In this document: piece after piece, positions 28,755 to 54,851 of the stretch
Position numbering within the stretch: the stretch's first letter is position 1
How the letters are laid out: each line of letters starts with the position of its first letter
The notes under the pieces: model-generated
Databases searched by the model: none
Seen by the model: only the letters and a program-made list of their open reading frames with translations
What the model was told of the DNA's origin: nothing
Made by a program: the position numbers and the translations under genes
From: a virus
Direction: 5' to 3' (one strand)
DNA: 64,000 bases
IMG/VR virus record: IMGVR_UViG_3300033552_000003
Span: 1 to 64,000 of that record

Positions 28755-31700
28755 ATGTCAGAAGTAACACCTGTACCATTACATAAATTAGTAATTAATC
28801 CAGAACCTACAAGAGAACAAGTACTTGATAATATAGGTAAAACTAATTTGTTAAATCCTCTTGTTGCTCCTACAACTACTATTACTCAAAAAGATATAAA
28901 AGATTTAGCCGATCAAAATATCAATTTTGTTACTCCAGATAAAACATGGAATCAACAAAAAGCAGAAAATCAAGGTAATTTAGAACAGCTTTATAATGTT
29001 GCAAAACAAGTTGTAGTAGGTCATGGAATAGGTGGTTTATTTACTGGAGCTGGTTATATAGAATCTTTAGCACAAAGTTCAAACATTGCTAATAATTACG
29101 ATAATGCTTATTCAAATAGCATGACAGAAATAGGTAATGCTATTTTAAAAAGTAGTCAATCTAATAATCCTATTTGGGAAGAAAAGCAAGGAGATTTTAA
29201 TCCTGGTGATTGGGGATATTATATGGGTAGATTAGCAGATGCTGGATCTGTTTTATCAATGGTTATTCCTACAGGATTAATAATTAAAGGATTAGGGTAT
29301 GCGGCTAAAGGACTTACACTTGCTTCTAGGTTTTCTAAAGCTGCCAATAGTGTAGGACTAGGTGCTAAGTATGCAAATTTAGCTGTTAAAGGAATTAGTT
29401 CTGCTATTGTATCAAGGCAAATAGAATCTTCTATGGAAGCAGATGGTATTTATCAAGAACAATATAATAAATATAAAGAGTTAGGCTACACTGAATTAGA
29501 AGCTAAATCTACCGCTTCTAAAGCTGCTGCTTCTACATATAGAGGTAACTGGGCTATGCTTACTCAAGATATATTTCAATATACTTTACTTGGATCTAAA
29601 TGGAGTCCAGCAAGTACTAAAATAGCAGATAAAGGTTTAAAAGGATTTGGTAAAAGTTTAGTTGCTTTAGGTACAGATGCTCTTTCAGAAGGTGCTGAAG
29701 AAGGCTATCAATATATATTAGGTCAAGAATCTAAAGCACAATCTGATATTGATAGTGGTCTAGCTAACGCTGATTTTGGTAGATCTTATAGATTAAAAAA
29801 AGATGTACAAGATGGAGAATTTCTTAATTCTGTAATAAGTGGAATGTTTGGTTCTACTGTTATACAAGGAGGAAATGCAATTGCTGCTAAGTTTTTAAAT
29901 AAAGAAGATTCTGTAAAAGAAGAGGAGTTTAATACTGAAAAAATTATTAATGCTCAGACTTATGCAGATAAGTATAAAGATATAAATCAAAGTATTAAAC
30001 AAGCTGATTTAGCTGAGGATAAAGAATCTGCTAAAGAATTCAGAAGAGAATTATCTACTGAACTTGCTTTACAATCTTCTGATTTAGGTAACATAGATAA
30101 ACATACTGAATTTTTAGAAGGACTTAATGCTATGAGTCCTGAACAAATGGATGCTTTTAATGCTGAAAACAGTACTGAATATAATCAAGAGTTTAAAGAA
30201 TTACTTCCTACTTTAATAGAAGATTCTAAAAAGATAGGAGATTTGTACAATGAAGGTTTTAGAAAGTTTGGTGATAAAGGATTAGCAAATACTTATGCTA
30301 AATCTAAATTTGATTTATCTACTAAAGATTTTTCAAGAAGAACTTTAGATGGAGATATTGCAAGATTATCTATAGACATCCCATTATTATCTGATCTAAG
30401 TCCTGCTGGAGTTATAGAAGCTACTGCTGTAAATACTATCAATAGTAATAAAGCTCTTTTAAAAACACTTAAAAAAGCTAGAGAATCAGGTAATATAACT
30501 GGTAAAAGATTAGAGGCTCTTAACGATAATATTGCTAAATCTGAAGAATCTATTACTAAAGCAAAAAAAGATATTCAAGATTCTAAACTAGTAGAAACTA
30601 CAGAAGAACAAAAAAGATCTGATAGATCTGTTATAGATAGTTTTGATAAAAATAATCAAGAGCTTAATACTAAACTAATTAGAAGAGCGTCCTTAGATAT
30701 GGATTTAAAAGTAGCTATTGATACAATCAATAAGCTAAATAATAATCCTGAAAAAATACAAGAGAATAAGATTAATAATTCTATAGATAAAGCTAACACA
30801 GTATCAGAATTAGAAACTATTGCTAGTACTTTACCTATTGATGCTTATGAATCTACTAAAGAGGCTTACAGAATTAAATTAAAATCTAAATATTCTGAAT
30901 TAAAACAACAAGAAGATAATATTAAAAGAGAAGCTGTAGAAAAAGAAATATCTTTTGTACAACCTACAAGTCCTTCAATAGAAACACCTGATCAAGTTGA
31001 AGCTAATAACTTCAAAAATGATCCTGATTCAGAATTTAATGATCTACTTATTAAACAAGGTAAAGTTATTAATCCACTTGATTTAGTTAATAACGATACA
31101 GTATCTGTAGAAGATCCACATGAACATGGTGCTATTGTATTTGGACAATTTAACAACGGAGTTGTTACTCCTGATTTTATTTTCTGGAAAGCAGATCAAG
31201 TATACTTTAAAAAAATAGATGGTGTATGGACGTTTGAAGGTGATCCTATAGAAGATGCTAATTACATAGAAGCTATAGAATCTTCTCTGTATGACATTCA
31301 AGAAGATTATAATAACAATAACTTTTATAATACACAAGTATTTACAGCTAAACAAAGAGAAGAAATATTACAAGTAGTAAATCCTTCTCAGGCAGTTATT
31401 ACAAAAGAGAATAATGTAAATACAGTTATTATTACTGAAGATACTAAAGAAAGTGAAGATATAGAATCTAAAAAAGCTGATATAGAAAGAAGAAGACAAG
31501 AAGAATTATTATCTTTTTTACCATCAGGATTAAAATCTTTATTTAATAAAACAATAAAAATAATATTTGATAAAACATTACGAAATATTGCTGCTTATAG
31601 AAAGATTACAAAAAATGGGATTTCTTCTGAAGACATAGCTTTATCATCCGATGGAAATTATAGAAATTTATTACACGAATTAATACATAAGTTTATAGAT

Positions 31701-34700
31701 GGCAGATTTGATACTGATACAAGATTAAAATTTAGAAGTAGAGCTATTTCTATTCTTAATAGAATATCTGAACTTTCAGAAGGAGATTCTACTGTAGGTA
31801 GAATGTTAAGAGGATATACTGGAATAGGAAATTCAATAGAAGAAGAAGTTGTTACATGGTATTTAACTGACTCTGATTTTAGAAATGAAATAAACTCTTT
31901 AGATTTAAATGTTAAAAATAAAGTACTTTCTTTAATAAAAGAAATTTCTGGATTTACTGATGATCAACTTCAAGAATTTATTAATTTTGATAGTTCAGAA
32001 AAAGCAAAAGAATTAGCTTTTGAAAATATTGATAATATTAATGCTAAATATGATGCTGAATTAGCTGCTTTAAAATCTAAAAAAGAAAGTACAAATATAA
32101 TTATTGAAATTGAAGAATTTACTATTGAAGAGTCTGAAGAAGCTAATTATTTAAAACCTAACTTACCTGGGAGTAGATTAGCTTATAAATCATATAGAGG
32201 AGATAATCCTACTACTGATTTACGTGAAGGATATAAGAAAGATTTTACAGATCTTATTGAAACTCCTATTCCTTTTTCTGAGAAGTTTGAAAAGAGTATT
32301 AATTTGTCAATTGATTTAGATTACATGAAAAGTAATCCATCTTTAGCTAAACTAATACCTCAATTAGATACTCTTGAAGATATTGGTAATATTCCAATTA
32401 AAGCAGAGTTAACGGGTAAAAATGGTAAGACCTATATATCTTATCTTTATACAAGTAATACTTTAAGAAATCAAACATATAATACTCAAGAACAAATAGA
32501 TAACTTATTATCTTTAAAAAGATCTGTAGTAGAAGCATACAAACAAGGTACATCTGTTATTACAAAAATAGATTATACTACAAGTGTACTTGGTGGAGTA
32601 TTTGCTAAACAACTAGATACGTTTGAAAATGTACCTACTAGTTTTCAATTACCTATTGAAGAATTTGATTTAAGAGTATCTTCTGATAACTATTACATTA
32701 AAGCAGATGGAACTGAAGACTTTGATTTACCAAGTCCTAAAAAGAAAGGTAACATCTATAGCGTACATAAAAATACTAATGGAAAATCTGTACCTGTTAA
32801 ATTATGGAATAGTAAAATAACTCCAGAGATATCTAACTTAATACTTAATATCTATAAAGAGATAAATTCTAAAGGACGTAAAGCTGCTTTATCTTCTGAA
32901 TTTAAAAGTTCTAATTCAGATATACTTAAAAACTTAATAAACATATTAGATAATCCTACATACGGAACTCTATTAGAGAATCTAGTTTATGAAGGTAAAA
33001 ATGAAACAGCTACAGCTAAGTATCCTCTATATTTATCTGAAAGTAAATTAACGTTTGGTAATTTAACTCAAGATATTAATAATATAGATGCAGAAGCATT
33101 CTTAAATTATACAACTACTAACAAGTACTTTCAAGTTAATAGAAAGTTATTAGCTGATAATAAGTATAAGAAATTCTTATTTGATAACATTCTTAAAACC
33201 AATACTGCTGCAGTAGATGGTAATTTATTTATACAACCTACTATAGTACTTTCTACAGATACTACACAAAGAGTATTTATACCTGTTAAAACAGAAGCTA
33301 TATCTGTACCTGATGAAAGTCAACCCACTACTATAGTTAGAGAAGATTTAGAAGCTCCTTCTATATTTGATTCTAAAGATATTGCACCTACTAAAGCTAC
33401 TGTTATTAATGAACAAGAAGCAATTGCTTGGTTAAGATCTAATTTAAGTATGGTTCCTGTAGAACTACAGAATGATGCTATTGAGATATTTAAAGATGGT
33501 ACACAATCTATAGGACGTTTTACTGAAGGTATGATTATACTTTCTAGATTAGCTAGTACTGGAACAGAATATCATGAAGCTTTTCATGCTGTAAGTCAAT
33601 TATATCTTACTGAAAAAGAAAGAACTGGTTTATACAATAAAGTAAAAGTAGCTGAAGGTAAACAATTAACTGATAGACAAGCAGAAGAATTATTAGCAGA
33701 TGAGTTTGCTTATTATGTAAAATCAGATGGAAAAGCTGATTATAAATATGTTGATAAATCCCCGTCTTCTTTTTTTGGAAAGCTACTTCAATGGATTAAA
33801 TCTGTATTTAGTAATACAACAACTGTAGATAAAGTATTTAAAAATATTAACTCTGGATTCTATACTAATAAAGTCTTACCACAAAATTTAAAAGTTACTT
33901 CTTATGATAAGAGAGTAGATAACTTATCTGTAGAACAAGCTAAGAATATAACTGATCATTTACTTTATTTAGCTTTTGTTACACAGAATTTAGGTTCAGA
34001 AGATATAAGTAAATTAGATTTTAATAAAGCTACTTTTGAATTATTTAAAGTATATAATGTAGCTGATTCTTCATTTAAAGAAAGATATGAAAGAGTATTT
34101 GATTCTCTTTGTAGATCTGATTGGAGAACTATATTTAATAATCCTAAAATAGATTTAAAACAAGTTGAATGGATAGATAACTATTCTCCTCTTGCAACTA
34201 ACTTATATGAAGGACTTCAAACACTAGGTATTAAAACTAAAATAAGTAAAAAAACTATTGAAGAGTTAGATACTGAATTAGAAGATCAGCGTTTAGATGA
34301 AACAGATGGTGATAATTATACTCCACTTACTACTAAAGCAAGTTATAATTATTCAAACAAAGAAACATCTAGAAACAATACTAAGTTATTAGTAGCAAGT
34401 TTACCTGCTATTAAAGAAATTAAAGATGGTAAAAATATATATGAAAAAGATGATTACTTTGGTTTAGTTAAAATAGCTGATTACGGTAGTACTTGGTCTT
34501 TCTTAGAAGATTTATTATCTAATATAAACCCAACTAACGAACAAGACGGCCTTGATATTATGATGAATCGTATTAAAGATTCACTTGTATTTAGACCTGA
34601 ATTAAGTAAACTGTATAATAATTTAAGTTCTGCTGATGATACAGTACGTACTCAGTTTTATACTGATATGAATTTAGTTAAGAATAATTTTGCTACAACT

Positions 34701-37700
34701 CTTTTAACTAAAGCATATAATGCAGAAACTAAAAAATATAACTACGAATACAAGTTTCAAAAAGGAAATCAAAAAAACGTAGCTAATAGAATTACTTCTG
34801 AATGGTCTGATTTGTTTAATAACAACTTTTTAACTGACTCTGGTATAGATGTGATTAAAGTAAAATCTATAACTGATAAAATATCTATTATAGAAAACAA
34901 ACTTAAAGAAAGATCTTTATCAGATTCTGAATTAAATGTTATTATAGAAAATATATATAAAACTCTTAATGATTTAGGATTTAGATTTACATCTGTTAAT
35001 TCACTTAGTTATGTTATTAACAGTATTAAATCAGATAATTTACAAGGTAGAGTATCTGCATTTTTATTAAGTAAAAGTGTAGGTATTGATAAAGTTATAG
35101 AAAGAATATCTTTAGGAGAAGATCCTGCAATCGTACTTCCTGATGAAAAAGGTATGACATATGTTGTTAATTTAGAAGCTAAGTTTAGAAAAGATGGTTT
35201 TGAATCATCTATTGTAGGTGCTGGTGGAAATAAACAGTGGTCTTATTCTTATGGAAGTTTTTTTAATAAAGTTATTTCTAGTATGAATAATATTAATGAA
35301 TCTGACTTTATTAAAAATTTATCTAACACACCTTACTTTAAAAATAGTGTTTGGTTTCATCAATTAAAAACTAATCAAGTATCGGCAAGTAGTATAACAT
35401 CTTCTATATTCTCTTCTCTTAAAGAAGAAAATAACGGTGATTCAGGTTCTTCTCTTACAGATCTTGCACCTAATGAAGAGAAATCAGATATTATAAACAG
35501 AATAATTGCTAATATAGATACTCCAGATAGATCAAGTTATTCTACAGGTTTAGCTAAAGCAGATAAATCTACAGATGTTCTTATAGCTGGATTTAAATTA
35601 ATTCCTGCAAAGTATACTAATAATCAGTTAAGTAATGCAGGTATTGATATATTATCTGGTTATTTAATAGATGAATTAAATAGAACAATACAAGCACATA
35701 AAGATGTAGATACATGGAAAGAAAATAATAATACTTCTGATCTTGTAGAATATTATCATTATGATCCAAAAAGTAAAGATAAGTTTGATAAATCTGGTGG
35801 TGCATTTAGAGTATTCTTATTCCCTGAATTAAGTTCTAAGTTATTAAAAGAATCTAATAAAGATCTTTATGATGCTATTTATGATGAATCAGGTGTACCT
35901 TATCCTATATCAGATAACTTTGTTAAAAATACTTTAATAAGAGATTATATAAATACTTCTTTTAGAAAAGTATTAAACTTTGAAATAGCTGAAGCACTTA
36001 AAGTAGGTGTTGTTAAACAAGGCTTAGAATTAGAAAATATATCACTTGATAATAAATTAGTTTCTAAACGTAAAGAAACTATGACTGAGCAGGAAGCTGT
36101 AATAAGTCTATTTGCTGATTATACTTTAAATGGAGTAATAAACAATGTTGAAACTACTAAGTTCTTTCATGGTGATCCTGCATTTTATAAAGGTACAGCT
36201 ATAGATCCATTTGCAGATATTAAGAAAAGAACACCTCTTATACTTGCAACAGGACGTGCTCAAAGAGTTTATAGAGATAAAGAAAACAATTGGGTAGTAC
36301 CACCAACTTATAGATCTGCAGTACTTGAGGATAGTGAAATAGCTTCTTACTATTATACTCCTGAGTATATAGATAACTTAGCAGATATATATTCTGAACT
36401 TAATGGTACGTCTAAAGAATCTGAATTAAGTAAATTAACAGAGCAATTTAGTGCTTACAAAAAAGTAAATGAAACTGATGCTCAAGCATATATAACTCTT
36501 GATAGATATAGAATTACTCAATTAGGTTGGGGTAAGTGGTCAACAGCTAAACAAGAAACTTTTGATGCTATAAAAACTTGGGAAACTAATCCTACAACTG
36601 AGAATTTAAATTTAGCTAGAAAATTATCTAAAGAATCTGATTTAGCTATGCAACCTCTTAAATCTGTACATACAGGTATGGAGTTTCATAGTTCTAATCC
36701 AGGTATAGGTATTGTAGAATATAATAAACAATCTGAAGCAGTACTTAATCCTGTATTTACAGTAGGTACTCCACTTGATAAATTACGTAAGTCTATGGAA
36801 GGTTCTGTAGATCACGTAATATTTAGAAGTGGTAAAAAAGTAGGTACTCAAGGTGCTACATCTATAAGTACGGATGGAGATATAAATAGTAATATTAAAT
36901 TTAATAAGATTAAAAACTTATCAAGTTATAATTATTACTTACAACAAGATCTACCTTATCATGGATTTGATGAATCTCTTGAAGGTTCTCAAATATTTAA
37001 TGTTGTACAATCAGATGTAGACTTTACTCATACTTATTCAAATGGTATGACTGGTAAAGAACTTATAGCTACTTTACAATCCACACAAGCTAAATTACAT
37101 GATATAGGTGGGCAGAAATTAAAGGATAAATACGAATTTACAGATAATTGGACACCAGATAATTATAAAAAGTTACGTAAAGATATTATGGAAGACCTTA
37201 CTAAACGAGGAGCTTCAGATAATATTAGAGAAACTTTACAAGATACATCTTTCCCTTTTTCAGCAATTGCACAAGCAACTAAAAGAGTTACTAATGCTTT
37301 TAACTCTATGGTTAATAGTTCTGGAGTTAAACTTAAAATGCCTGGTGGACCTCTTATTCAAATAAGTGGTTTTGGTATTGCAAGACCTACAGGTTATACA
37401 GAGTTAAATAAAAAAGTTAAGGAGGGTATTTTATGGTTTGGAGAAAAAGAATTATCTCCTCCTAAATTAGTTAAAACAGAAGAAGGAATTACTTCTCTTA
37501 AAGGACAAATACTTGTTCCTCACACAATAGTTGAATCTATTGAAGGATGGGAAACTATGTCTAAGAGTGAGTTACTTTCTAAAATAGATAAAGATACTCT
37601 TTATGCTATTGGATATCGTATTCCAAATCAAGGATTATCTTCAAATGATTCTCTTGAAATTGTAGGTATACTTCCAGTTGAAGCAGGTGATTCAGTAGTT

Positions 37701-40700
37701 CTTTATAATGAAGTAACTACTAAAACAGGAGCAGATTTTGATATAGATAAAATGTATATCATGGTTCCTAATTATAACTATAATAAAGAATCAGGTAGAA
37801 TTGAAAAAGTTAAATATGATTCAACTAACGAAACTGAAGAAGGATTACAGAACTATAAATTAGATCTTTATAATACATTATTATCAGATCCTAAATCTTA
37901 TCTTTCTGTAGTAGCACCTTTAGATTCACCTTTCTTATCAGATACTATTGATCAATTACATGGTGTAGATAAAGTTGAGAATAGAGATTTAATCTTTATG
38001 TCTCCAGGGCAACAGTATAACATTAAAACATCTTTTAGAGGTGGTAAAACAGGTATTGGTATATTAGCTAACAATATTGTTGATCACGTACAAGGACAAA
38101 TATGGGATTTAAAATTAAATGGAGTTGATTTAGGACGTGGTAACAGATCAATTGAAGGTGAAACTGTATTCTCAGGACTTGATTGTGAAGCTACTCAAGA
38201 TGGTACAGTATATAAAATAAGCTCTGTTCTTTCATGGTTTGCAAATGCTTTTGTAGATATAGCTAAAGATCCATATATAACTAAAGGTAATTTTAATGAT
38301 ACTACATTATCTACTACGATGATGTTAGTACGTGCAGGATTTGCTCCTGATTGGATTATTAACTTTATGGGTCAACCTATTCTTAAAGATTATGTTACTT
38401 TAACTAATGCTAATAAAGGAAGAATTAGATCTTATAATGATGTTTTAGCAATTGTAAAAGCAAAATATAAAGGAGAATCTAATAAAGTTAGTGCTAGTAT
38501 TGCTATCAGTAAATTAAAGTCATGTATACAAAATAAAGATTCTGTATCTAACTTTAATGATATACAAACAGGTATATTAGATTTGTTTGTAGAATTTGAT
38601 AGATCTGCTAAAGTTCTTCAAGAACAAATACGTGCATCTAAACAAAATACAAATGGTGCAGGTAAATCTAACGTAGAAGCATTTACTATATCTGAACAAG
38701 TTAATAAAGTAAATTCTGAAAATAAAATAGGTAATTTTAGTAATAAATTTAATGGTGCATTAGGTGCAGCATACGAAAACTCTGTTACTCTTTTACGTAA
38801 TATGTTTGGAGATTTCTTATTCTCAGATAACTCTGTAAACAAACAAGCTATAAGAGAAATATCTTCAGATCAAGGTAAGTTATTTGCAACTGATTTAGAA
38901 CTTAATGAAAAAGTATCTGAATCATTCTATTCTTATGTATCATCTGGATTAGAATTCTTTAAAAATACAGATCTTAAAGAACTACTTTATGGTAAAGAAT
39001 CTATTGCTAATAGAATATATAATTTAAAATATGGTAAAGAATCTACTGTACGTAATAATATTCTTATACAATATTTAGAAATACAGAAACAAAAAGGATC
39101 TATTCCTGGAACAGTAGGTATTAATCAATTTAGAGATAAGTCTATAGCAGTACAGAATCAAATTACTCAAAGTTGGGAAGAACTTCTTTCTTCAGACAAT
39201 CCTAAAACAAAAGCTGTTGCAGAAGATCTTGTAAAATATGCGTTTTATTCATCTGGATTTAACCCTACATCCAAATCCTTTTTTGAATACATTCCTTATA
39301 AGTATTTGAAACAAATAGGATTTGGTGATTATATGGATAACTTTATGAAAAATCCTAATAATCAAATTGTTGATAGTTTTAAAGAACAGTTTTATCAAAA
39401 CAATATTGATTCTGATTATATCAAGGATTTTAATAAAAATGATATTATAAATAAAAATGGTATTGTTACTATTAAAGAAGATTCTTTAAAGAAATTCTTT
39501 ATAGGATATTCTACAGTTAATAATACTACACAAATAGAATACAGTAGATATATTAAATCAGTTGAAATAGTAGAAAACGTTATAACAAAAGGTAATGAAA
39601 AAATTAAAATCTTTAATAAAACAAGTAAATTATATAAACTTCAAGGATATGATATAAGTAATGTACCTATGTATACTCAAATAGGTATTAAAGGATACTC
39701 TGCTAAAGATGGTAATAGAGTTGTAGAATATTCTTATAACGAGAATAAAGAATCTATATTTAATCTTTTAGTTAAAGATATTCAAATAGAAGTTAGTTTA
39801 TATCCTCAAACTCCTAATTCAGAATCGTATAACAATACTTCAGAAAATAAACTTACTAAAGTAAATAATACTAATTTTACATTAGGAAAAGCAATTATTG
39901 ATTATATAAATTCTATATTACCAAATTTTATAAAAAATAAAAATGATGAATTTAATTTTGTATCTGAACTTAAAGCTTTACAATTATTATCTTTTGAAGA
40001 AAATACTAAAGAAGAATTAATTAGCGGTAAAAAGAATGCTGAAAGTGCTTTACAAGAATGGGCAGATGGAAATAAAAATTTAAATAGCCAATTAAATAAT
40101 ATTTTAGCAAATATACTACTTGGTAAACTAGCTGAAGACGGACTTTCTGAATCAGATATATGGCACAATTTATTTAATACGCCATTAAAAAATACTAATG
40201 AAAAAAATGTATCTAAAACTAAAAATTTAGAATTTGTATTTAATGAAAATCCTATATTAAAAGAGGTAGGAACTAAAAAACAGTATTCTAATTATTTAGA
40301 TACTATATTTCCAAATAGTACATTAACAGATATTGTTTATCATGGTACAAATAATAAAAATGAAATATTAAAAGAAGGATTTAAAAACAATAGTGAATTA
40401 TTTAGTGCTGATGACGATAGACATTATGAAATTGGAGAATTAGGGAATGGTTATTATTTTACACCTAGTATAAATTCTGCTAAAAATTATGGAGAAATTG
40501 TTAGTGCTGTAATAAACAATCCTGATGTAGAAAATAAAACTACATTTAACAACATAACTAATGAACAAGAAACACAGTATTTTGTAAAATCAAAAAAACA
40601 AATACATGTATTAGGTACAGAACAAGATATAGAAGGATTTAAAGAATATGTAAAAAAAGATGTATCTTTGAATGAATCAATAGATCTAGAAAACGATTTA

Positions 40701-40709
40701 ATTTGTTAA
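28755..40709 (+). CDS. giant (3,984 aa) virion protein: crAss-type two-barrel RNA polymerase core plus two HExxH modules and a C-terminal ART-like module
   Basis: GYRIPNQGLSS...TGADFDIDKMYIMVP (nt 37617-37760) parallels RNAP beta-prime NRAPTLHRLG...NADFDGDQMAVHVP. HELIH at 31674-31688, HEAFH at 33573-33587. YHGT / GNGYYFT / NEQETQYFV at 40338-40586. Confidence 0.8.
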   Translation: MSEVTPVPLHKLVINPEPTREQVLDNIGKTNLLNPLVAPTTTITQKDIKDLADQNINFVTPDKTWNQQKAENQGNLEQLYNVAKQVVVGHGIGGLFTGAGYIESLAQSSNIANNYDNAYSNSMTEIGNAILKSSQSNNPIWEEKQGDFNPGDWGYYMGRLADAGSVLSMVIPTGLIIKGLGYAAKGLTLASRFSKAANSVGLGAKYANLAVKGISSAIVSRQIESSMEADGIYQEQYNKYKELGYTELEAKSTASKAAASTYRGNWAMLTQDIFQYTLLGSKWSPASTKIADKGLKGFGKSLVALGTDALSEGAEEGYQYILGQESKAQSDIDSGLANADFGRSYRLKKDVQDGEFLNSVISGMFGSTVIQGGNAIAAKFLNKEDSVKEEEFNTEKIINAQTYADKYKDINQSIKQADLAEDKESAKEFRRELSTELALQSSDLGNIDKHTEFLEGLNAMSPEQMDAFNAENSTEYNQEFKELLPTLIEDSKKIGDLYNEGFRKFGDKGLANTYAKSKFDLSTKDFSRRTLDGDIARLSIDIPLLSDLSPAGVIEATAVNTINSNKALLKTLKKARESGNITGKRLEALNDNIAKSEESITKAKKDIQDSKLVETTEEQKRSDRSVIDSFDKNNQELNTKLIRRASLDMDLKVAIDTINKLNNNPEKIQENKINNSIDKANTVSELETIASTLPIDAYESTKEAYRIKLKSKYSELKQQEDNIKREAVEKEISFVQPTSPSIETPDQVEANNFKNDPDSEFNDLLIKQGKVINPLDLVNNDTVSVEDPHEHGAIVFGQFNNGVVTPDFIFWKADQVYFKKIDGVWTFEGDPIEDANYIEAIESSLYDIQEDYNNNNFYNTQVFTAKQREEILQVVNPSQAVITKENNVNTVIITEDTKESEDIESKKADIERRRQEELLSFLPSGLKSLFNKTIKIIFDKTLRNIAAYRKITKNGISSEDIALSSDGNYRNLLHELIHKFIDGRFDTDTRLKFRSRAISILNRISELSEGDSTVGRMLRGYTGIGNSIEEEVVTWYLTDSDFRNEINSLDLNVKNKVLSLIKEISGFTDDQLQEFINFDSSEKAKELAFENIDNINAKYDAELAALKSKKESTNIIIEIEEFTIEESEEANYLKPNLPGSRLAYKSYRGDNPTTDLREGYKKDFTDLIETPIPFSEKFEKSINLSIDLDYMKSNPSLAKLIPQLDTLEDIGNIPIKAELTGKNGKTYISYLYTSNTLRNQTYNTQEQIDNLLSLKRSVVEAYKQGTSVITKIDYTTSVLGGVFAKQLDTFENVPTSFQLPIEEFDLRVSSDNYYIKADGTEDFDLPSPKKKGNIYSVHKNTNGKSVPVKLWNSKITPEISNLILNIYKEINSKGRKAALSSEFKSSNSDILKNLINILDNPTYGTLLENLVYEGKNETATAKYPLYLSESKLTFGNLTQDINNIDAEAFLNYTTTNKYFQVNRKLLADNKYKKFLFDNILKTNTAAVDGNLFIQPTIVLSTDTTQRVFIPVKTEAISVPDESQPTTIVREDLEAPSIFDSKDIAPTKATVINEQEAIAWLRSNLSMVPVELQNDAIEIFKDGTQSIGRFTEGMIILSRLASTGTEYHEAFHAVSQLYLTEKERTGLYNKVKVAEGKQLTDRQAEELLADEFAYYVKSDGKADYKYVDKSPSSFFGKLLQWIKSVFSNTTTVDKVFKNINSGFYTNKVLPQNLKVTSYDKRVDNLSVEQAKNITDHLLYLAFVTQNLGSEDISKLDFNKATFELFKVYNVADSSFKERYERVFDSLCRSDWRTIFNNPKIDLKQVEWIDNYSPLATNLYEGLQTLGIKTKISKKTIEELDTELEDQRLDETDGDNYTPLTTKASYNYSNKETSRNNTKLLVASLPAIKEIKDGKNIYEKDDYFGLVKIADYGSTWSFLEDLLSNINPTNEQDGLDIMMNRIKDSLVFRPELSKLYNNLSSADDTVRTQFYTDMNLVKNNFATTLLTKAYNAETKKYNYEYKFQKGNQKNVANRITSEWSDLFNNNFLTDSGIDVIKVKSITDKISIIENKLKERSLSDSELNVIIENIYKTLNDLGFRFTSVNSLSYVINSIKSDNLQGRVSAFLLSKSVGIDKVIERISLGEDPAIVLPDEKGMTYVVNLEAKFRKDGFESSIVGAGGNKQWSYSYGSFFNKVISSMNNINESDFIKNLSNTPYFKNSVWFHQLKTNQVSASSITSSIFSSLKEENNGDSGSSLTDLAPNEEKSDIINRIIANIDTPDRSSYSTGLAKADKSTDVLIAGFKLIPAKYTNNQLSNAGIDILSGYLIDELNRTIQAHKDVDTWKENNNTSDLVEYYHYDPKSKDKFDKSGGAFRVFLFPELSSKLLKESNKDLYDAIYDESGVPYPISDNFVKNTLIRDYINTSFRKVLNFEIAEALKVGVVKQGLELENISLDNKLVSKRKETMTEQEAVISLFADYTLNGVINNVETTKFFHGDPAFYKGTAIDPFADIKKRTPLILATGRAQRVYRDKENNWVVPPTYRSAVLEDSEIASYYYTPEYIDNLADIYSELNGTSKESELSKLTEQFSAYKKVNETDAQAYITLDRYRITQLGWGKWSTAKQETFDAIKTWETNPTTENLNLARKLSKESDLAMQPLKSVHTGMEFHSSNPGIGIVEYNKQSEAVLNPVFTVGTPLDKLRKSMEGSVDHVIFRSGKKVGTQGATSISTDGDINSNIKFNKIKNLSSYNYYLQQDLPYHGFDESLEGSQIFNVVQSDVDFTHTYSNGMTGKELIATLQSTQAKLHDIGGQKLKDKYEFTDNWTPDNYKKLRKDIMEDLTKRGASDNIRETLQDTSFPFSAIAQATKRVTNAFNSMVNSSGVKLKMPGGPLIQISGFGIARPTGYTELNKKVKEGILWFGEKELSPPKLVKTEEGITSLKGQILVPHTIVESIEGWETMSKSELLSKIDKDTLYAIGYRIPNQGLSSNDSLEIVGILPVEAGDSVVLYNEVTTKTGADFDIDKMYIMVPNYNYNKESGRIEKVKYDSTNETEEGLQNYKLDLYNTLLSDPKSYLSVVAPLDSPFLSDTIDQLHGVDKVENRDLIFMSPGQQYNIKTSFRGGKTGIGILANNIVDHVQGQIWDLKLNGVDLGRGNRSIEGETVFSGLDCEATQDGTVYKISSVLSWFANAFVDIAKDPYITKGNFNDTTLSTTMMLVRAGFAPDWIINFMGQPILKDYVTLTNANKGRIRSYNDVLAIVKAKYKGESNKVSASIAISKLKSCIQNKDSVSNFNDIQTGILDLFVEFDRSAKVLQEQIRASKQNTNGAGKSNVEAFTISEQVNKVNSENKIGNFSNKFNGALGAAYENSVTLLRNMFGDFLFSDNSVNKQAIREISSDQGKLFATDLELNEKVSESFYSYVSSGLEFFKNTDLKELLYGKESIANRIYNLKYGKESTVRNNILIQYLEIQKQKGSIPGTVGINQFRDKSIAVQNQITQSWEELLSSDNPKTKAVAEDLVKYAFYSSGFNPTSKSFFEYIPYKYLKQIGFGDYMDNFMKNPNNQIVDSFKEQFYQNNIDSDYIKDFNKNDIINKNGIVTIKEDSLKKFFIGYSTVNNTTQIEYSRYIKSVEIVENVITKGNEKIKIFNKTSKLYKLQGYDISNVPMYTQIGIKGYSAKDGNRVVEYSYNENKESIFNLLVKDIQIEVSLYPQTPNSESYNNTSENKLTKVNNTNFTLGKAIIDYINSILPNFIKNKNDEFNFVSELKALQLLSFEENTKEELISGKKNAESALQEWADGNKNLNSQLNNILANILLGKLAEDGLSESDIWHNLFNTPLKNTNEKNVSKTKNLEFVFNENPILKEVGTKKQYSNYLDTIFPNSTLTDIVYHGTNNKNEILKEGFKNNSELFSADDDRHYEIGELGNGYYFTPSINSAKNYGEIVSAVINNPDVENKTTFNNITNEQETQYFVKSKKQIHVLGTEQDIEGFKEYVKKDVSLNESIDLENDLIC

Positions 40710-40711
40710 TT

Positions 40712-43700
40712 ATGGCTTGTAAAATACCAAACTATATTGAAATATCTAACGCTTTAAGTAAAACTAAAGATTACTTAACTTCTGTACATCATGTTGTAGG
40801 AGAAGATATTAAAGCTTCAGGTGTGTTTGAAAAAGGCTTTACGTCTAATAGATATTATACTAGAAGTATTAGAACTGATAGTATAAATAAATCTAGAAAA
40901 TGGGTTGCTGATTACAACAATAAAATTAAAGAAATATTTGGTATAAAAGATAAAATACTAACGCTTAAAAAATCAGAATATAAAGGATCTACACAATACG
41001 AATCTATCAGTATAGATGCTACTGTACTTAAAACTTATCATGAAAAATTAGTTGATTTAAGAGATTCTACAAAATTAATAACTGCAGATGTAGAAAGAGG
41101 TTCTGAACCAGATTTCTATACAGGTAATTATCAAAAAGAATCTAATTATGGTTTTGAAAGTTTACAGGGATTATCTAATAAGATATTACGTCTTAAAAAG
41201 AATTTTAATACAAATGTTGTATTAGATTCTGATATGAAAGAATTAGGTAGAGTAGATCCTTATGAAGCTGGAGAAACTCCTACTGTTAGAATTAATCCTA
41301 TATTAGTTAATAAAGATACAGTGATACATGAATTTGGTCACGTATATATTAACTTGTTAGGTGGTAATTCTGATAGTATGATTGCTGAAGGAATAGCTCA
41401 ACTTAAAGGATCTGAATTATGGAATAAAGTTGCTTTAGCGTATTCTTCACTTACTGAAAAAGAATTAGGTGAGGAAGTATTAGCAACTGCAATAGGATTA
41501 GAGGGTGCAGAGATATTTGATGATTACATTAAAAGATCTAAATTTAGTTTATGGTTAGATAACTTTTTTAATAAATTAAAATCTTTAATAGGTATACCAA
41601 GAAACGTAGCTAAAGAATTAGCTAAAGAGATGTTTGGTAATAAGTTACGTACGGGAACTCCTAAAGGAATTAATTATTATCAGAAACAAAAGCTTGGTAC
41701 ACAAGATGAAGTTTATAATAAATTATTTTCTGCTAATAGTGAATTTACATCTGGAGAAAATAGCGATGTACTTATTAAAGATGGTGTACCATATACCAAC
41801 ATAAGTAAATTAGTATCTACAGATTTTCCTAGAAATACACTACAGAAGAAATCTTATGAAAGATCTGTACTTGAGATATTTAAACTAGTAAATAACAACT
41901 TAGATTTAGGATCAGTAAAAACAGAATTTAAGAAAGAACAAGATAAATCTAAATTTGGCTACCTTACTTTTCTGAATGATACTGATATAGAATCAGTATA
42001 TACTTACTGTAAGAAGTTTAAAGATAAATTTACTGAAGAGGGTAAAAAAGTACTTATTGGAAATACTGTAGTAGATGATAGAGATAACGTTAATATAGCT
42101 GGTAACATACAAATCAGTACTGTATCTCAAAAAGGTAAAGTAGATATATATAATCTGTTTATTACTTTAGGATCTGAACTTACAACTGATAGTATTGTTG
42201 CTGAACAGAGTTTACAAGTTGAAGCTTTAAAGAATATGGGTATTCAAACTAGTTCTATTTATACTTTACCTATTCGTTTAGTAGAGGACAGACTTATACC
42301 TAATCCTTATGTTGAAAATACTGTTAATAAAGAATACATAAAGAAGTATCTTTCTATACAGTTATCTCCTGAAGCAATAACTAAAGTAGCTAATACAGCT
42401 AAAGAACTTGTAGGTGTATTACAGAGAAAAGTAAGTATAATTTCTAGAACTATAGAAAGTAAAACTCCTATTCAAAAAGAACGTTTTGATGAGTTTAAAC
42501 AAACTGTAGCGGATTTAGCAGATGCTGAACAAACTAAAGTTATAACTTCATTTTTAGATACTGCTACTAGAGAAGTACTTGCACTTGAAAAACGTTTACA
42601 AAGTACAATTCAAAAAGATGATTTTACTTTAGAAGATTTACGAACTATATATGAATATAGTCAAGCATATTCTTCTGTTAAAGAAGTATCTGAATTACTT
42701 AGAGATCCTTCTATTGCTGAAGAATTTAAAGATACTAATTATATTAATCAAATAGATATTGTTAAAAGACATATTGATAATATAACAAGTACTTATAAAA
42801 AATATGCTAAAATAGCTTTAGCTAGAAGTAATAAAAAAGAAAGTAAAATATTTACAGCTAGGCGTATTGAACTTGAAAGAGAATTTAATAAAATAGAAAT
42901 TAAAAAATACAGTTCTCTTAAAGGAGATCAATTAAAACAAAAGAAATTAGAGTACATAAACAAACATATAGCTGATGAGTATAATATTTTAATACAAGAA
43001 GAAGAGGATCGTATAGTTAAGTTATTAACGGATACAGATTCTGATATTGGTGCAGTAGATTTATGGGTTACAGATAGCAGAAACTTAAATGATGAATTAT
43101 TACAATTACTTGAAAATAAATTATCAGTTGCTGACTTTACGGTTACTTCTGCTACTCAAGATGTTTATTCAGATGTAGATACAATCTTTAAAGAAGTTAT
43201 TACACTTAAAAGTAATACAACTGATCAGAAAAAGTTATATGAAGAATCTTTAGAAACTTATGAAAGTAAAACTACAGGATATTACGTATCTCAATACTTT
43301 TCTGAATTTGATAAACAGAAAAAGGTAGTATGGGATAAATACTATTCTTTTGAAAATAAAGATTCTTCTGAAGCACTAAAAGCTTATACTGAGGCTGTTG
43401 CTTGGAACAAAGATAATATTCAAAGTAAATACACTGAATCTTTTCAAAATCAAATGGATCAGTTTTTATCTGCAGATGATACTAATTATAAAGTAAATAG
43501 AATATTAGCTAAATATTCTGATAAAAGTAATGTATCAGATAAAGATTTAGCAGAAATAAAAACTTTACTTGAAAACAAGAAATCTACTCCTGATAAATTA
43601 AAGAATAAATTTTATAGCCAAGTTGATTTTGTAGAATCAGAAAGTTTTATAGAAACCAAAAAAAGAAAGAGTAAGCAACTTGGAGACAAATATGACGAAT

Positions 43701-45748
43701 GGTTAAGTAAACAGTATTATACAAAAGCTAATACTAAACGTTTATTACCTATGTGGTCTGAGTTATCTCCTAAAGATAAGTCTGTACTTAATCCTGATAA
43801 AGGTTTACCTAAGAATAAATGGGTAAATCCACAATATAAAAAACTAGAAGAACTTAGAAAACAAGACTCTTCTGTTGCTAAATTATATGATAAACTAATA
43901 AGTTATAACTTAGAAGCTGATAATTTAGTACCTCTTGCTCAAAGATTAGGTTATAAATTACCTTCTATAGAAAAATCAACTATTGAAAGAGTTTCTGATA
44001 AAGGTCCTTGGTTTGCAATAAGAGAAGGTTTTTTAAATTCATTTAGAAAAACAAACTTAGATATTGATTTAGGTGAAGAACAAGGAGTAGATAAAAAACA
44101 AGGTATTAATAGTCTACGTAATGTTGTAGACTCAGTTATTAATGTATTTACTACAGAAGCAGGTAGAGAAAAGAAAGCTATTCCTATTCATTATAGAAAA
44201 GACTTAACAAACTTAGAAGATCAATCTTATGATCTAGCTACTTTATGTTTAGCTAATTATCAAACTTGTAAAAATTACAGTGAAAAAACTAAAGTAGCAC
44301 TTGATTTAGAAGTTGCTAAAGATTTAGTTTATGAAAGACAGGTAAATCAATATACTCCAGATGGTAAATTAAAACTTGATAATTTTACAGGTAAAGCTGT
44401 AAAAAAAGAAGGTACATCTAATACATATAAAGCAATAGAATCTTTACTTGATACTAGACTTTATGGTATTAGAATGTTAGGAGATGCAAGTTTTAATAAG
44501 AAAGTGGGTCAATTAAATAACTGGGCTAGTGGTACAGTTATGATTCTTAATTATTTATCTGCTCCAGCCAATTTACTACATGGTAAAGTAACATCACTCA
44601 TTGAATCTGTAAGTAGTACATATTATAATACTACTAACTTAAAAAATGGAGAAGCTGAATATGCTAAGGATACTAAAAACATATTAGGTGATATAGGAAA
44701 TAGAAGACCTAATTCTAAAACAAATATACTTTTAGAAAGATTTAATGTACTTGATTCTTTTGATGTATTACATAATAGATTTTCTGAGAATAGTAAAGCT
44801 AGTAATTTATTAAAAGTAAATTCTCTTTATAGTTTTCAAACAGGTGGTGAACATATGATCCAAGGATCTGTAATGTATGCATATTTAGATACTATTAAAG
44901 TAACTAACAGTGAAAGTGTTACAGTTAAGTTTACAGATGCTATTGATATAGTAGATGGAAAAATAAAAGCTAAGGAGGGATATGAGGATGCAGTTAAACC
45001 TGAGCAATTATATAATATATCTGCAAGTATTGCTAGGATATTATCACATCAATTTGGTAACTATTCAAGTACTAATATATCTCAGTTACAACGTTTTGCA
45101 GTAGGTAACATGGTTGTGTCTTTAAAGAAGTTTTTTGTAGGTGGTGCTAAAAGAAGATACAGAGGTATATCAAACATTAAGAATAGAATAGGAGAAGATA
45201 ATTATAATACTCAGCATTATGATCCAGTTCTTGGTCACTATGTAGAAGGGGATTATATAACTACAATACGTACTTTACGTACTATGTATCAGGATTTTAA
45301 AACTTTAAAAATGCAAGCTATAGGTCAAACCTGGGAAGGTATGACAGATATTGAAAAAGGAAGATTTAAAAGAACTATGATCGAATTGAATATAGCACTT
45401 CTTGCGTTTACTTTGTCTATGCTTTTAAAAGGAGATAAAGATGATGATGAAGAAGAAACTACTACTCAATTAATGGGAGCATTCTTAACTCGTAGATTAT
45501 ATAGTGAATTATCTTTCTGGGTAAATCCTATAGAAATAGGACGTACTTTAAGATCACCTGCCCAATCCCTATCTTTTTCAGAAAAAATATTTAGACTATT
45601 AGGACAATTAACTAATCCTATGGAAGAATATACAAAAGGTAAAAGAAAAGGAGATAAAAAGATATTTAAAAAAATAGCAGATATTACACCTATATACTCA
45701 CAAATAAATCGTAATTTAGCAGAGTCAGTAGACTTCCTCTACAAATAA
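40712..45748 (+). CDS. large internal/ejected protein (1,678 aa from the ATG) with an N-terminal zincin HExxH module and a C-terminal TM segment
   Basis: The track start is TTG 40703; the ATG at 40712 lies 2 nt after the upstream stop. VIHEFGHVYINLLGG has HEFGH at 41327-41341. Near the C-terminus, IALLAFTLSMLL is followed by DKDDDEEE. Confidence 0.8.
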   Translation: MACKIPNYIEISNALSKTKDYLTSVHHVVGEDIKASGVFEKGFTSNRYYTRSIRTDSINKSRKWVADYNNKIKEIFGIKDKILTLKKSEYKGSTQYESISIDATVLKTYHEKLVDLRDSTKLITADVERGSEPDFYTGNYQKESNYGFESLQGLSNKILRLKKNFNTNVVLDSDMKELGRVDPYEAGETPTVRINPILVNKDTVIHEFGHVYINLLGGNSDSMIAEGIAQLKGSELWNKVALAYSSLTEKELGEEVLATAIGLEGAEIFDDYIKRSKFSLWLDNFFNKLKSLIGIPRNVAKELAKEMFGNKLRTGTPKGINYYQKQKLGTQDEVYNKLFSANSEFTSGENSDVLIKDGVPYTNISKLVSTDFPRNTLQKKSYERSVLEIFKLVNNNLDLGSVKTEFKKEQDKSKFGYLTFLNDTDIESVYTYCKKFKDKFTEEGKKVLIGNTVVDDRDNVNIAGNIQISTVSQKGKVDIYNLFITLGSELTTDSIVAEQSLQVEALKNMGIQTSSIYTLPIRLVEDRLIPNPYVENTVNKEYIKKYLSIQLSPEAITKVANTAKELVGVLQRKVSIISRTIESKTPIQKERFDEFKQTVADLADAEQTKVITSFLDTATREVLALEKRLQSTIQKDDFTLEDLRTIYEYSQAYSSVKEVSELLRDPSIAEEFKDTNYINQIDIVKRHIDNITSTYKKYAKIALARSNKKESKIFTARRIELEREFNKIEIKKYSSLKGDQLKQKKLEYINKHIADEYNILIQEEEDRIVKLLTDTDSDIGAVDLWVTDSRNLNDELLQLLENKLSVADFTVTSATQDVYSDVDTIFKEVITLKSNTTDQKKLYEESLETYESKTTGYYVSQYFSEFDKQKKVVWDKYYSFENKDSSEALKAYTEAVAWNKDNIQSKYTESFQNQMDQFLSADDTNYKVNRILAKYSDKSNVSDKDLAEIKTLLENKKSTPDKLKNKFYSQVDFVESESFIETKKRKSKQLGDKYDEWLSKQYYTKANTKRLLPMWSELSPKDKSVLNPDKGLPKNKWVNPQYKKLEELRKQDSSVAKLYDKLISYNLEADNLVPLAQRLGYKLPSIEKSTIERVSDKGPWFAIREGFLNSFRKTNLDIDLGEEQGVDKKQGINSLRNVVDSVINVFTTEAGREKKAIPIHYRKDLTNLEDQSYDLATLCLANYQTCKNYSEKTKVALDLEVAKDLVYERQVNQYTPDGKLKLDNFTGKAVKKEGTSNTYKAIESLLDTRLYGIRMLGDASFNKKVGQLNNWASGTVMILNYLSAPANLLHGKVTSLIESVSSTYYNTTNLKNGEAEYAKDTKNILGDIGNRRPNSKTNILLERFNVLDSFDVLHNRFSENSKASNLLKVNSLYSFQTGGEHMIQGSVMYAYLDTIKVTNSESVTVKFTDAIDIVDGKIKAKEGYEDAVKPEQLYNISASIARILSHQFGNYSSTNISQLQRFAVGNMVVSLKKFFVGGAKRRYRGISNIKNRIGEDNYNTQHYDPVLGHYVEGDYITTIRTLRTMYQDFKTLKMQAIGQTWEGMTDIEKGRFKRTMIELNIALLAFTLSMLLKGDKDDDEEETTTQLMGAFLTRRLYSELSFWVNPIEIGRTLRSPAQSLSFSEKIFRLLGQLTNPMEEYTKGKRKGDKKIFKKIADITPIYSQINRNLAESVDFLYK

Positions 45749-45760
45749 AATTTTAAAAAG

Positions 45761-46780
45761 ATGACAGAAGATACTAATTTAGGAGATGGTTTAAAAGTAA
45801 CAGGAAATTATCATGTAGATAGTCTTTATGGACCATATTTATCTATTGCAGATGCAAATGCTAAAGTAACTCTTTATCTAAGATCTGTTTCTGGTGTTAC
45901 AGGATTATTAGTTGGACGTACAGTTGCAATTGATGATGGTACAGTTAGAAAAGAATACTGGTGGGATGGTGGAACTGCAGATACAAATCTTGTTGAAAAA
46001 GTAGCAGGAAGCGGTGGTGGTGGAAGTACTTATACAGGTGTTTCTCCATCAAATGTAACTGTTGGAGGAATACCTTCAGGTACAAATCTTACAGGTAAAA
46101 CATTTACTGAAGTAATTCAACTATTAACAGTTACATATATAAACCCTAGCTTTACTGGATTTAATTTTACAGGTCAAGCACAAACTGTAGAAATAGGTAC
46201 AATATTAACTGGTTCTAGAACAATGACATGGTCTATCAATTCAGGATCAGGTACAATACCTACAATAGATATATTAGATAATACAGCAGGAACTACTTTG
46301 TTAGCTGGAACACCTAATGATGGAACACAAACATTAACAATAAATACAATTCAATTAAATACTGGTGGAGCAACACAAAGCTGGAGACTTAGAGGAAATA
46401 ATACATCTCCTGTAGGAACATTCAATTCTGGTGACTTTAATGTAGTAGGTAGATTCATATTATTTTTTGGTGCAACAACAAGTACTCCAACAACATCTGC
46501 TCAAATTAGAGCATTACCTCAAACACAGTTTTACACTGGTGGAGGAGTAATACAACTAAATACAGGTACGGGTATTAAATTTGGTGTTGCGGTTCCTCCA
46601 GGTTCTACTGTAGTTTCTGCAATAGATTTAGATGCTTCAAATGCAAATGTTACTTACACATTCGTAGGAAACATAAGTGTAACCGATGCAGGTGGTACAG
46701 CTAGGCTATACCCTTATTACGAAGCAAACATTGCAGTTGCATATTCTTCAAATCATAGATTTAACATATCAATATCTTAA
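45761..46780 (+). CDS. tail fibre / fibre adaptor, 339 aa
   Basis: G/T/S-rich beta-type composition. The N-terminal GPY..ADANA module plus GSGGGGS linker is shared with the next gene. Confidence 0.65.
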   Translation: MTEDTNLGDGLKVTGNYHVDSLYGPYLSIADANAKVTLYLRSVSGVTGLLVGRTVAIDDGTVRKEYWWDGGTADTNLVEKVAGSGGGGSTYTGVSPSNVTVGGIPSGTNLTGKTFTEVIQLLTVTYINPSFTGFNFTGQAQTVEIGTILTGSRTMTWSINSGSGTIPTIDILDNTAGTTLLAGTPNDGTQTLTINTIQLNTGGATQSWRLRGNNTSPVGTFNSGDFNVVGRFILFFGATTSTPTTSAQIRALPQTQFYTGGGVIQLNTGTGIKFGVAVPPGSTVVSAIDLDASNANVTYTFVGNISVTDAGGTARLYPYYEANIAVAYSSNHRFNISIS

Positions 46781-46783
46781 TAT

Positions 46784-49075: not shown

Positions 49076-49082
49076 AAATATT

Positions 49083-51950: not shown

Positions 51951-51975
51951 TTATTATATTTGTAAAAAAAATATC

Positions 51976-52236
51976 ATGGAAAATACAATCGAAGTACAGG
52001 AAGTAAGCACAGAAGCAATTATACAACTTTCGGAGCAGTCTTTTTCAGACCTAAACGAATTGATTGTACAGAATAACTATTTCCAATTAAAGGCGCAAAA
52101 GTCATTAAGAGATTTGAATGATAACTTATTTACTTCTATTAATGCTTCTGAGCACAGCGTATCAGACTATATGGTTAAAGACATAAACTTTAATACAAGA
52201 CAATTAGTATTAATCAAAAAACCAGAAGCAGTATAA
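51976..52236 (+). CDS. hypothetical protein, 86 aa
   Basis: ORF in the track; inside the GC-richer island. Confidence 0.6.
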   Translation: MENTIEVQEVSTEAIIQLSEQSFSDLNELIVQNNYFQLKAQKSLRDLNDNLFTSINASEHSVSDYMVKDINFNTRQLVLIKKPEAV

Positions 52237-54533: not shown

Positions 54534-54537
54534 TTTG

Positions 54538-54608
54538 CACAAAGACTAAGACTCGAACTTAGATTAACGGTTTTGGAGACCGTGGTTCTACCATTGAACT
54601 ATCTATGT
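54538..54608 (-). tRNA. trnW: tRNA-Trp (CCA)
   Basis: Hand-folded cloverleaf, 71 nt: ACAUAGA-UA-GUUC-AAUGGUA-GAAC-C-ACGGU-[CU CCA AA]-ACCGU-UAAU-CUAAG-UUCGAGU-CUUAG-UCUUUGU-G. One U:U mismatch in the acceptor stem; CCA is not encoded. Confidence 0.8.
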
Positions 54609-54614
54609 GTGTAG

Positions 54615-54688
54615 AGGAAAGTCTCAGATTCGAACTGAGGATCACTTGATTAACAGTCAAGAGCTTTAACCAACTAAGCTAACTTTCC
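54615..54688 (-). tRNA. trnN: tRNA-Asn (GUU)
   Basis: 74 nt: GGAAAGU-UA-GCUU-AGUUGGUUA-AAGC-U-CUUGA-[CU GUU AA]-UCAAG-UGAUC-CUCAG-UUCGAAU-CUGAG-ACUUUCC-U. All stems are perfect. Confidence 0.85.
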
Positions 54689-54848: not shown

Positions 54849-54851
54849 AAA

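Follow-up and report, generated by a model that had tools for sequence, protein, structure and literature searches.

The DNA considered here, hereafter the window, comprises 64,000 nucleotides (nt) of the IMG/VR virus record IMGVR_UViG_3300033552_000003 (positions 1 to 64,000), and all coordinates given below are window positions. It carries a giant open reading frame (ORF) of 3,984 amino acids (aa), which our comparisons suggest encodes a cargo protein of an uncultivated crAss-like phage: a natural fusion of the proteins that are separate as gp67 and gp66 in phage phi14:2, containing a crAss-type two-barrel virion RNA polymerase and recently gained HELIH and ADP-ribosyltransferase (ART) cassettes, which would be packaged, ejected and linked to its neighbour through terminal cysteines. 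Judged jointly, polymerase included, we regard this explanation as likely, and the host is probably a member of the Bacteroidota. The features on which the argument draws are as follows.

28755..40709, plus strand: giant ORF, 3,984 aa, a putative gp67-family and gp66-family virion RNA polymerase fusion with two inserted cassettes (83% identity to metagenomic protein P0025)
28755..33344, plus strand: gp67-family N-terminal module, aa 1 to ~1530, broken by the cassette at aa 895-1118 (iterative search)
29232..29324, plus strand: segment of moderate hydrophobicity, rich in Gly and Ala, aa 160-190, which may interact with membranes (Kyte-Doolittle)
31437..32108, plus strand: inserted cassette, aa 895-1118 (224 residues), absent from P0025
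33417..33974, plus strand: zincin-like (gluzincin-type) domain, aa ~1555-1740 (conservation and profile match)
34245..39449, plus strand: two-barrel virion RNA polymerase region, aa 1831-3565, gp66 homologue (phmmer against the PDB)
36819..36854, plus strand: first-barrel (beta-like) motif IFRSGKKVGTQG, aa 2689-2700 (aligns to gp66 IVLDGVKVGATT)
37611..37769, plus strand: second-barrel (beta-prime-like) catalytic segment GYRIPNQG...ADFDIDKMYIMVP, aa 2953-3005 (aligns to gp66 1361-DFDID-1365)
40278..40670, plus strand: ART-PolyVal-type ADP-ribosyltransferase-fold domain, aa ~3842-3972 (Pfam PF18760, AlphaFold2/Foldseek)
40704..40706, plus strand: codon (TGT) of the terminal Cys3984, directly before the TAA stop, pairing in position with Cys3 of the next protein
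40712..45748, plus strand: gp65-family gene ('RNA polymerase associated protein'), 1,678 aa from the ATG at 40712 (phmmer against phi14:2 gp65, E = 2.6e-57)

The giant ORF is, as the initial annotation of this DNA had it, one uninterrupted frame from ATG to TAA (11,955 nt, 3,984 codons plus stop, 28755-40709), and at a G+C content of ~28% a frame of this length is not accidental. Tightly packed genes on the same strand flank it, with those for the terminase, portal and major head protein lying upstream and opening the same-strand block, and P0025 is identical to it at 83% of 3,528 aligned positions. The gp65-family protein encoded downstream begins MACKIPNY, with an HEFGH motif around aa 206 and a hydrophobic segment towards the C-terminal end. 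The resulting order gp67-gp66-gp65 equals that of phi14:2 g067-g066-g065, all three of which are annotated from virion tandem mass spectrometry. A megablast search with 20 kb of the window against phage genomes (50,697 records) gave no DNA-level match, and the window is therefore not a sequenced isolate.

The polymerase provides the clearest homology. Used as a phmmer query against the PDB, the whole protein matched a sole entry, phi14:2 gp66 (PDB ID 6VR4), at E = 3.7e-124, which bears out the crAss-type two-barrel virion polymerase proposed from the sequence at the outset, and the comparison with gp66 suggested then as a check yields an alignment over ~1,735 residues. Two blocks of the query, aa 1831-3026 and 3027-3565, correspond to residues 207-1408 and 1486-2035 of the 6VR4 chain at ~33% identity, and the same homology was recovered when the alignment was repeated with the genome-encoded gp66 sequence; it takes in the parts that the gp66 paper names as cleft-blocking, barrel, bridge-helix and trigger-loop regions. 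The metal-site segment is nearly identical in the two proteins (window AIGYRIPNQGLSSNDSLEIVGILPVEAGDSVVLYNEVTTKTGADFDIDKMYIMVPN, gp66 AIGYRIPNQGQSSNDPLQIVGILPEAMGDTIVAYTEIPTKTGSDFDIDKMYVMLPN), with the DFDID at aa 2994-2998 (nt 37734-37748) and D2994, D2996 and D2998, whose original numbering was correct, aligning to gp66 1361-1365. The surrounding GYRIPNQG...MYIMVP segment had also been picked out and is present, but it spans aa 2953-3005 (nt 37611-37769) and not aa 2955-3005 (nt 37617-37760). Among 24 diverse relatives a DFDxD-type motif occurs in every aligned sequence, the consensus around the metal site being GYRIP...GSDFDIDKMYIM. For the first barrel, SGKKVG of the window aligns to DGVKVG of gp66, so that K2695 and G2697 form the conserved K.G pair kept in at least 80% of the same relatives, and it is on this conserved lysine that IFRSGKKVGTQG, offered in the initial annotation as a weaker beta-like candidate, falls. 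The corresponding gp66 stretch IVLDGVKVGATT directly precedes the Connector domain (residues 1095-1238), which lies between the two barrels, DFDID being the catalytic motif (gp66 preprint); our barrel assignment of IFRSGKKVGTQG follows these gp66 domain limits rather than a structure of the window protein. Scans of the complete 3,984-aa protein with Pfam, PHROGs and NCBIfam gave nothing useful, and Pfam found no match in seven sub-segments of it. The polymerase core is one more diverged member of a known family, of which phi14:2 gp66 is known to be present in the virion and to carry out early transcription (gp66 preprint), while the crAss001 homologues gp47, gp49 and gp50 were detected in virions by mass spectrometry (crAss001 structural study); by homology the window protein would likewise be packaged and transcribe early genes.

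A side observation concerns the catalytic motif of one relative. At locus L017 (11368-12315) the polymerase ORF halts within the DFDID codons (...KKTGSD) and picks up at MYIMFPNY ~930 nt further on, and the insert carries a 214-aa ORF resembling a LAGLIDADG-type homing endonuclease. To judge from the look of the ORF, the insert is probably a self-splicing intron within the catalytic motif.

The chain is nearly twice the size of gp66, as had been noticed, because a gp67-family protein is fused to the polymerase here. Three things account for the extra length, namely this fusion, the zincin-like domain (HEAFH at aa 1607), and two insertions absent from P0025, which are the HELIH cassette at aa 895-1118 and a C-terminal tail bearing the ART-PolyVal-type domain at aa ~3842-3972. 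Plain phmmer did not link the N-terminal part to phi14:2 gp67; an iterative profile search of a local set of relatives matched gp67 aa 63-747 and 862-1331 to query aa 62-677 and 1119-1567, with E = 7.5e-172 after iteration. Moreover, in seven IMG/VR loci (L007, L009-L011, L015, L017 and L020) the same gp67 family is the gene immediately upstream of the polymerase gene. Where the initial annotation spoke of hydrophobic N-terminal segments, one stands and a second does not: a 19-residue Kyte-Doolittle (KD) mean above 1.4 is reached only at aa 160-184 (maximum 1.54), and an equivalent segment occupies the same place in gp67 (aa 172-190, KD 1.72), P0025, P0027 and P0031. We also considered whether Cys1786, which lies ~180 aa past the HExxH with a spacing as in crAss001 gp47, might be a leftover of the former gp67/gp66 junction.

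That phi14:2 has two genes here is the single point in favour of an assembly or frameshift artefact joining two genes. The same fused layout recurs in independent metagenomic proteins (P0025, P0027, P0029, L008, L012, L013, L016 and L021), and the junction cysteines discussed below are absent in the giant ORF, as they are in other fusions, so that we give an artefact next to no chance. A natural fusion, which we prefer, also has company: among 25 IMG/VR relatives the polymerase ORF measures 2,148-5,641 aa, and other fused ORFs include cr113_1 gp38 (4,328 aa) and the giant ORF of Flavobacterium phage FpV4 (4,287 aa). Polyprotein fusions of these proteins, and a zincin-like domain in the gene block, have already been mentioned (gp66 preprint), and with polymerase ORFs of such lengths common among relatives the novelty first claimed for this ORF was overstated; neither the polymerase nor the giant size nor the fusion is of a new kind. 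As a separate matter, the annotated 4,328-aa coding sequence of cr113_1 gp38 (locus L003) falls into short ORFs under the standard bacterial code, which is consistent with stop-codon reassignment in cr113_1.

HExxH occurs twice and no more in the giant protein, as HELIH from aa 974 and as HEAFH from aa 1607, and the two differ in standing. HEAFH (aa 1607-1611, nt 33573-33587) belongs to a zincin-like domain conserved in 51 crAss-like phage records and seven IMG/VR relatives, in which it lies ~1,320-1,440 aa upstream of the polymerase metal site (~1,390 aa in the window). The domain profile matches Pro-Pro endopeptidase/Zmp1 at a marginal E = 0.017 with the HExxH and a downstream Glu-containing helix aligned, the EELLADEFAYY helix (aa 1644-1654, nt 33684-33716) pairing with EEFFAESFAYY of the peptidase; the conserved domain has both an HExxH and a downstream Glu ligand, at marginal significance. 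In crAss001, jaberico and crAss002 it forms the C-terminal part of the gp67-family protein. Its metal ligands have been lost (YWEAFRRV, not YHEAFHxV) in L018, L019 and L026, exactly the lineage in which all three cargo proteins are fused.

The HELIH motif (aa 974-978, nt 31674-31688) sits in the cassette at aa 895-1118, between the bracket motifs KADIERRRQEEL (nt 31473-31508) and INAKYDAELAAL (nt 32037-32072). Word-indexed searches with the zincin region and with the HELIH cassette returned one match each, and relatives were therefore drawn from IMG/VR loci and from an exhaustive search of representative proteins. Homologous cassettes were found in four other proteins (P0027, P0028, P0029 and P0033), HELIH and an EE..T.YLT motif being invariant among the five, and none was detected in phage records (50,697) or IMG/VR relatives. 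Around the second bracketed insert of P0028, and around those of P0030, P0031 and P0032, the same brackets enclose sequence unrelated to the cassette, and they look like a reusable insertion slot. Such unrelated inserts in other gp67-family proteins (among P0027-P0033) measure 67-190 aa, and both flanks are modelled as long helices. Two HExxH modules had been proposed initially; both motifs are present and the one at aa 1607 lies in a gluzincin-like domain, but for the cassette at aa 974 no peptidase likeness emerged. Its AlphaFold2 model is all-helical (predicted local distance difference test, pLDDT, 76.8), and comparison of the model with PDB structures gave no meaningful match and no peptidase, nor did its profile match anything in the PDB. 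A test of whether the cassette is a copy of the conserved zincin domain came out negative (hhalign probability 0.6%, no profile or structural match). Both this cassette and the ART-bearing tail appear to be recent insertions, because P0025, at 83% identity, has neither.

The ART-bearing tail (from ~aa 3708) has no counterpart in P0025, which still ends ...ENDLIC(E), and no homologue of it was detected in the 50,697 phage records. The C-terminal ART-like module named in the initial annotation is supported by a direct Pfam match below threshold, homologues above it and a predicted fold with weak likeness to PARP-family ART domains. Searched alone, the last 200 aa match ART-PolyVal (PF18760) at E = 4.2e-4 and 21.5 bits against a gathering cut-off of 31.2 bits, which the homologues P0005 (48.5 bits), P0006 (42.2) and P0019 (51.0) exceed, and database homologues of the domain reach E = 3e-54. 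For the AlphaFold2 model, built with homologues (pLDDT 79.6), the best 50 PDB matches listed by Foldseek are all PARP-family ART-fold domains, but weakly matched (best E = 0.016, probability 0.95, template modelling score ~0.3). With a hidden Markov model of the domain, three further crAss-like contigs are seen to contain it, in each case where the polymerase and gp65 meet: inside the fused ORF in L006, at the N-terminus of the gp65-like ORF in L021, and in L030 as a gene of its own (290 aa) that separates the giant from the gp65-like gene. Literature searches gave no mention of an ART on a crAss-type polymerase. In a 4,401-aa relative, P0029, a NADAR domain (Pfam PF08719, 61.7 bits) lies in the last ~200 aa just ahead of the terminal Cys, in the position that the ART occupies in the window protein.

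Whether the module is still a transferase depends on how its active site is read. The ART-PolyVal family was defined in polyvalent proteins and has the active-site signature H-Y-D (Iyer et al. 2017, PMC5512222). The window protein keeps the His (H3863, in VYHGT), which is invariant, and the tyrosines Y3901/Y3902 (GYYFT). The Asp conserved in the family is Asn here (N3932) and in the closest homologue, P0001; it is kept in P0002, L021 and L006. As a result of this replacement transferase activity may be altered or absent, and the module might instead act as an NAD+/ADP-ribose-binding or structural adaptor at the gp65-like junction, a reading with which the direct Pfam score below threshold also agrees. 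Against such an adaptor stand the retained His and Tyr of the NAD+ pocket, the 65% identity of the domain between two otherwise distant phages, which suggests purifying selection, and a Glu (E3939) at the start of the next predicted strand after N3932 in the AlphaFold2 model; PARP-family mono-ARTs, moreover, have been reported active without the acidic residue. We hold loss of the transferase to be unlikely, if by no great distance, and favour a domain that acts as an ART.

The giant protein ends in a cysteine, and so, near its start, does the next protein of the block begin with one: the junction in the window reads ...DLIC* and then MACKIPNY, the Cys3 codon of the gp65-family protein lying at 40718-40720. 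Cysteine makes up 0.13% of the chain proteins (96,259 residues). When junctions were surveyed at window 40704-40720 and in loci L001, L004-L030, L034 and L035, all 26 of the 26 scored split junctions, from 19 lineages, had an upstream Cys within the last 10 residues and a downstream Cys within the first 6 (at residue 3-6), as against 1/70 other adjacent gene pairs in the same loci. In phi14:2, gp67 ends ...NTIC, gp66 runs MACK...QECK and gp65 begins MSCK, and none of the three has a further cysteine. In crAss001, gp47 has a single Cys (residue 2339 of 2341), gp50 (2,412 aa) has C5, C2404 and one internal Cys, and the only Cys of gp49 is residue 5. Other fused polyproteins, too, carry a terminal cysteine ahead of the gp65-like gene. 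This paired terminal cysteine rule is apparently unreported, and literature searches gave no mention of the pattern. Translational coupling was rejected as the meaning of the junction motif: the crAss001 gp47 gene lies on the strand opposite gp50 and gp49 and yet keeps the pattern, and at L007 three unrelated genes separate the partners.

Most likely, as the conservation of the pattern suggests, Cys3984 and Cys3 of the gp65-family protein connect the end of one protein with the start of the other, either through a disulfide or through a metal that both residues bind. Extending this, the gp67-, gp66- and gp65-family cargo and small modules such as the ART may be joined head to tail by their terminal cysteines, leaving the capsid as one covalent or metal-bridged string whether fused or split, with the link undone in the reducing cytoplasm, while the string ends and the bracketed gp67 site (ERRRQE...DAEL) would serve as docking points for swapped effector cassettes (ART, NADAR, the HELIH module). 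In the window the string would consist of the 3,984-aa protein (...DLIC) joined to the 1,678-aa gp65-like protein (MACK...). We advance this broader proposal tentatively, at slightly less than even chances. The terminal cysteines could alternatively contact something else (a portal or capsid partner, a metal, a lipid) or be a conserved terminal signal with no linkage of cargo, and the downstream cysteine does vary in position between residues 3 and 6 instead of being fixed; disulfides do occur in crAss001 virions, where they are reported only for the portal-vertex auxiliary protein and tail parts (crAss001 structural study). Such contacts fit poorly with the fact that the cysteines are confined to junctions within the chain: no N-terminal cysteine is found on the protein that opens the series, and no C-terminal one on the protein that closes it. 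They fit no better with the loss of both cysteines together wherever two genes fuse, down to fully fused ORFs (5.6 thousand aa) without any Cys, or with the small ART protein inserted at L030, whose only two cysteines are residues 3 and 289 out of 290. At the locus where the homing-endonuclease-like insert interrupts the polymerase ORF inside the DFDID codons, no cysteines occur at the break. We think another role for the cysteines doubtful, and a linkage of cargo remains the reading that we prefer.

Combined with what is known of the phi14:2 and crAss001 virion proteins, these observations suggest the following course of events. The giant protein would be packaged in the capsid and ejected into the host, together with or ahead of the DNA, and the Cys3984-Cys3 link would let the entire cargo set leave the capsid as one string. 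After ejection the polymerase, with K2695 of the first barrel and D2994, D2996 and D2998 of the second, would transcribe early genes, and the ART-type domain would act on a host target with NAD+, by the same logic as proposed for the polyvalent proteins of N4-like phages.

The ORF could instead encode a precursor polyprotein from which, after packaging or ejection, its own zincin domain or domains release the polymerase, the ART module and a gp67-like piece, only these products being functional. The zincin-like domain does lie close to the former gp67/gp66 boundary and a second zincin-like motif is present in the downstream gp65-like protein, and the gp66 preprint regards such polyproteins as 'likely cleaved' and suggests a possible role for the zincin in activating the polymerase. 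No HExxH, however, occurs anywhere in the longest fusions (L018, L019 and L026, 5,178-5,641 aa), their zincin domain reading YWEAFRRV, and self-cleavage by these domains is therefore not a general requirement; the paired cysteines kept at every split junction scored (26/26) moreover point to selection for staying connected and not for separation. The comparative data favour delivery as one chain, and we consider a self-cleaved precursor improbable.

Several points weigh against the explanation as a whole. The expression, packaging and enzymatic activity of the window protein are predicted from homology, and the cysteine linkage is read from conservation. The link to gp67 required iterative profile searching of a small local database, the zincin match to PPEP-1 is marginal (E = 0.017), and the HELIH cassette shows no detectable peptidase similarity in sequence profile or predicted fold. 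The ART domain falls below the Pfam gathering threshold, and the Asp of its [FY]-D-[AGS] motif, present in 12/13 more distant homologues, is Asn (FNN, N3932).

Compared with known systems, the window protein shares with phi14:2 gp66 (PDB ID 6VR4) the DFDID, the first-barrel K.G pair, the bridge-helix and trigger-loop, the cleft-blocking segment and a gp65 homologue downstream; gp66, however, is a stand-alone protein of 2,180 aa, to which the window protein adds a gp67-family part, a zincin-like domain and an ART-type domain. The fused crAss-like polyproteins (cr113_1 gp38, FpV4 and IMG/VR relatives) have the same order of gp67-like part, zincin and polymerase, but the ART tail was undetected in phage records and the HELIH cassette in phage records or IMG/VR relatives. 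What appears new, as a variant, is an ART-PolyVal-type domain and a bracketed HELIH cassette on a two-barrel virion polymerase, both recently inserted. It is as if the zincin and ART-PolyVal tool-kit of the N4-like polyvalent polymerases had been grafted onto an unrelated two-barrel crAss-like polymerase; the N4-type enzyme we take to be single-subunit (T7-like) and unrelated to the two-barrel fold, and the shared architecture would therefore be convergent. N4-like polyvalent proteins likewise combine a giant virion-delivered polymerase with a zincin-like peptidase and ART-PolyVal on one chain (PMC5512222), the virion RNA polymerase of Roseovarius Plymouth podovirus 1 carrying metallopeptidase and ART domains and the ART-PolyVal prototype being N4-like (Iyer et al. 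2017, PMC5512222). The architecture of the window protein agrees with the definition of a polyvalent protein given in the same study, its virion association being assigned by homology. Phage T4 Alt offers a model for a head-packaged ART that enters the cell along with the DNA, where it modifies the host RNA polymerase as well as other proteins (PMC5512222), although it falls in the R-S-E clade and exists as a small protein of its own, outside any polymerase chain. In Thermus phage P23-45 (bioRxiv 10.1101/2022.12.01.518664), a two-barrel virion polymerase likewise lies within a giant ejected structural protein of 5,002 residues, but P23-45 is a long-tailed phage and the polymerase is fused there to its tail tape measure protein.

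Since relatives have a separate ART gene or a NADAR domain at the same spot, the polymerase chain seems to have at its end a slot for modules of host manipulation or counter-defence related to NAD+/ADP-ribose. The paired terminal cysteines, for their part, bear on how crAss-like phages move proteins of such size, several of them and in sequence, through a narrow tail, a question left by the crAss001 structural study.

Three further observations concern the downstream DNA. The hydrophobic segment near the C-terminus of the gp65-family protein is conserved (window 45386-45442, aa 1559-1577 of the TTG-start translation, KD 1.54; phi14:2 gp65 aa 1293-1311, KD 1.69) and mirrors its counterpart towards the N-terminal end of the gp67-family part. 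On the minus strand, amid an otherwise plus-strand block, tRNA genes for Trp, Asn, Phe, Gln and Asp form a cluster of five at 54537-55015. Finally, window 46000-52000 has a G+C content of 37-39% compared with 26-30% in adjacent DNA, and an ORF of 763 aa (46784-49075) has its match in phrog_8480, a family of lysophospholipase L1-like esterases (E = 2e-40); the stretch may be a horizontally acquired receptor-binding or depolymerase module.

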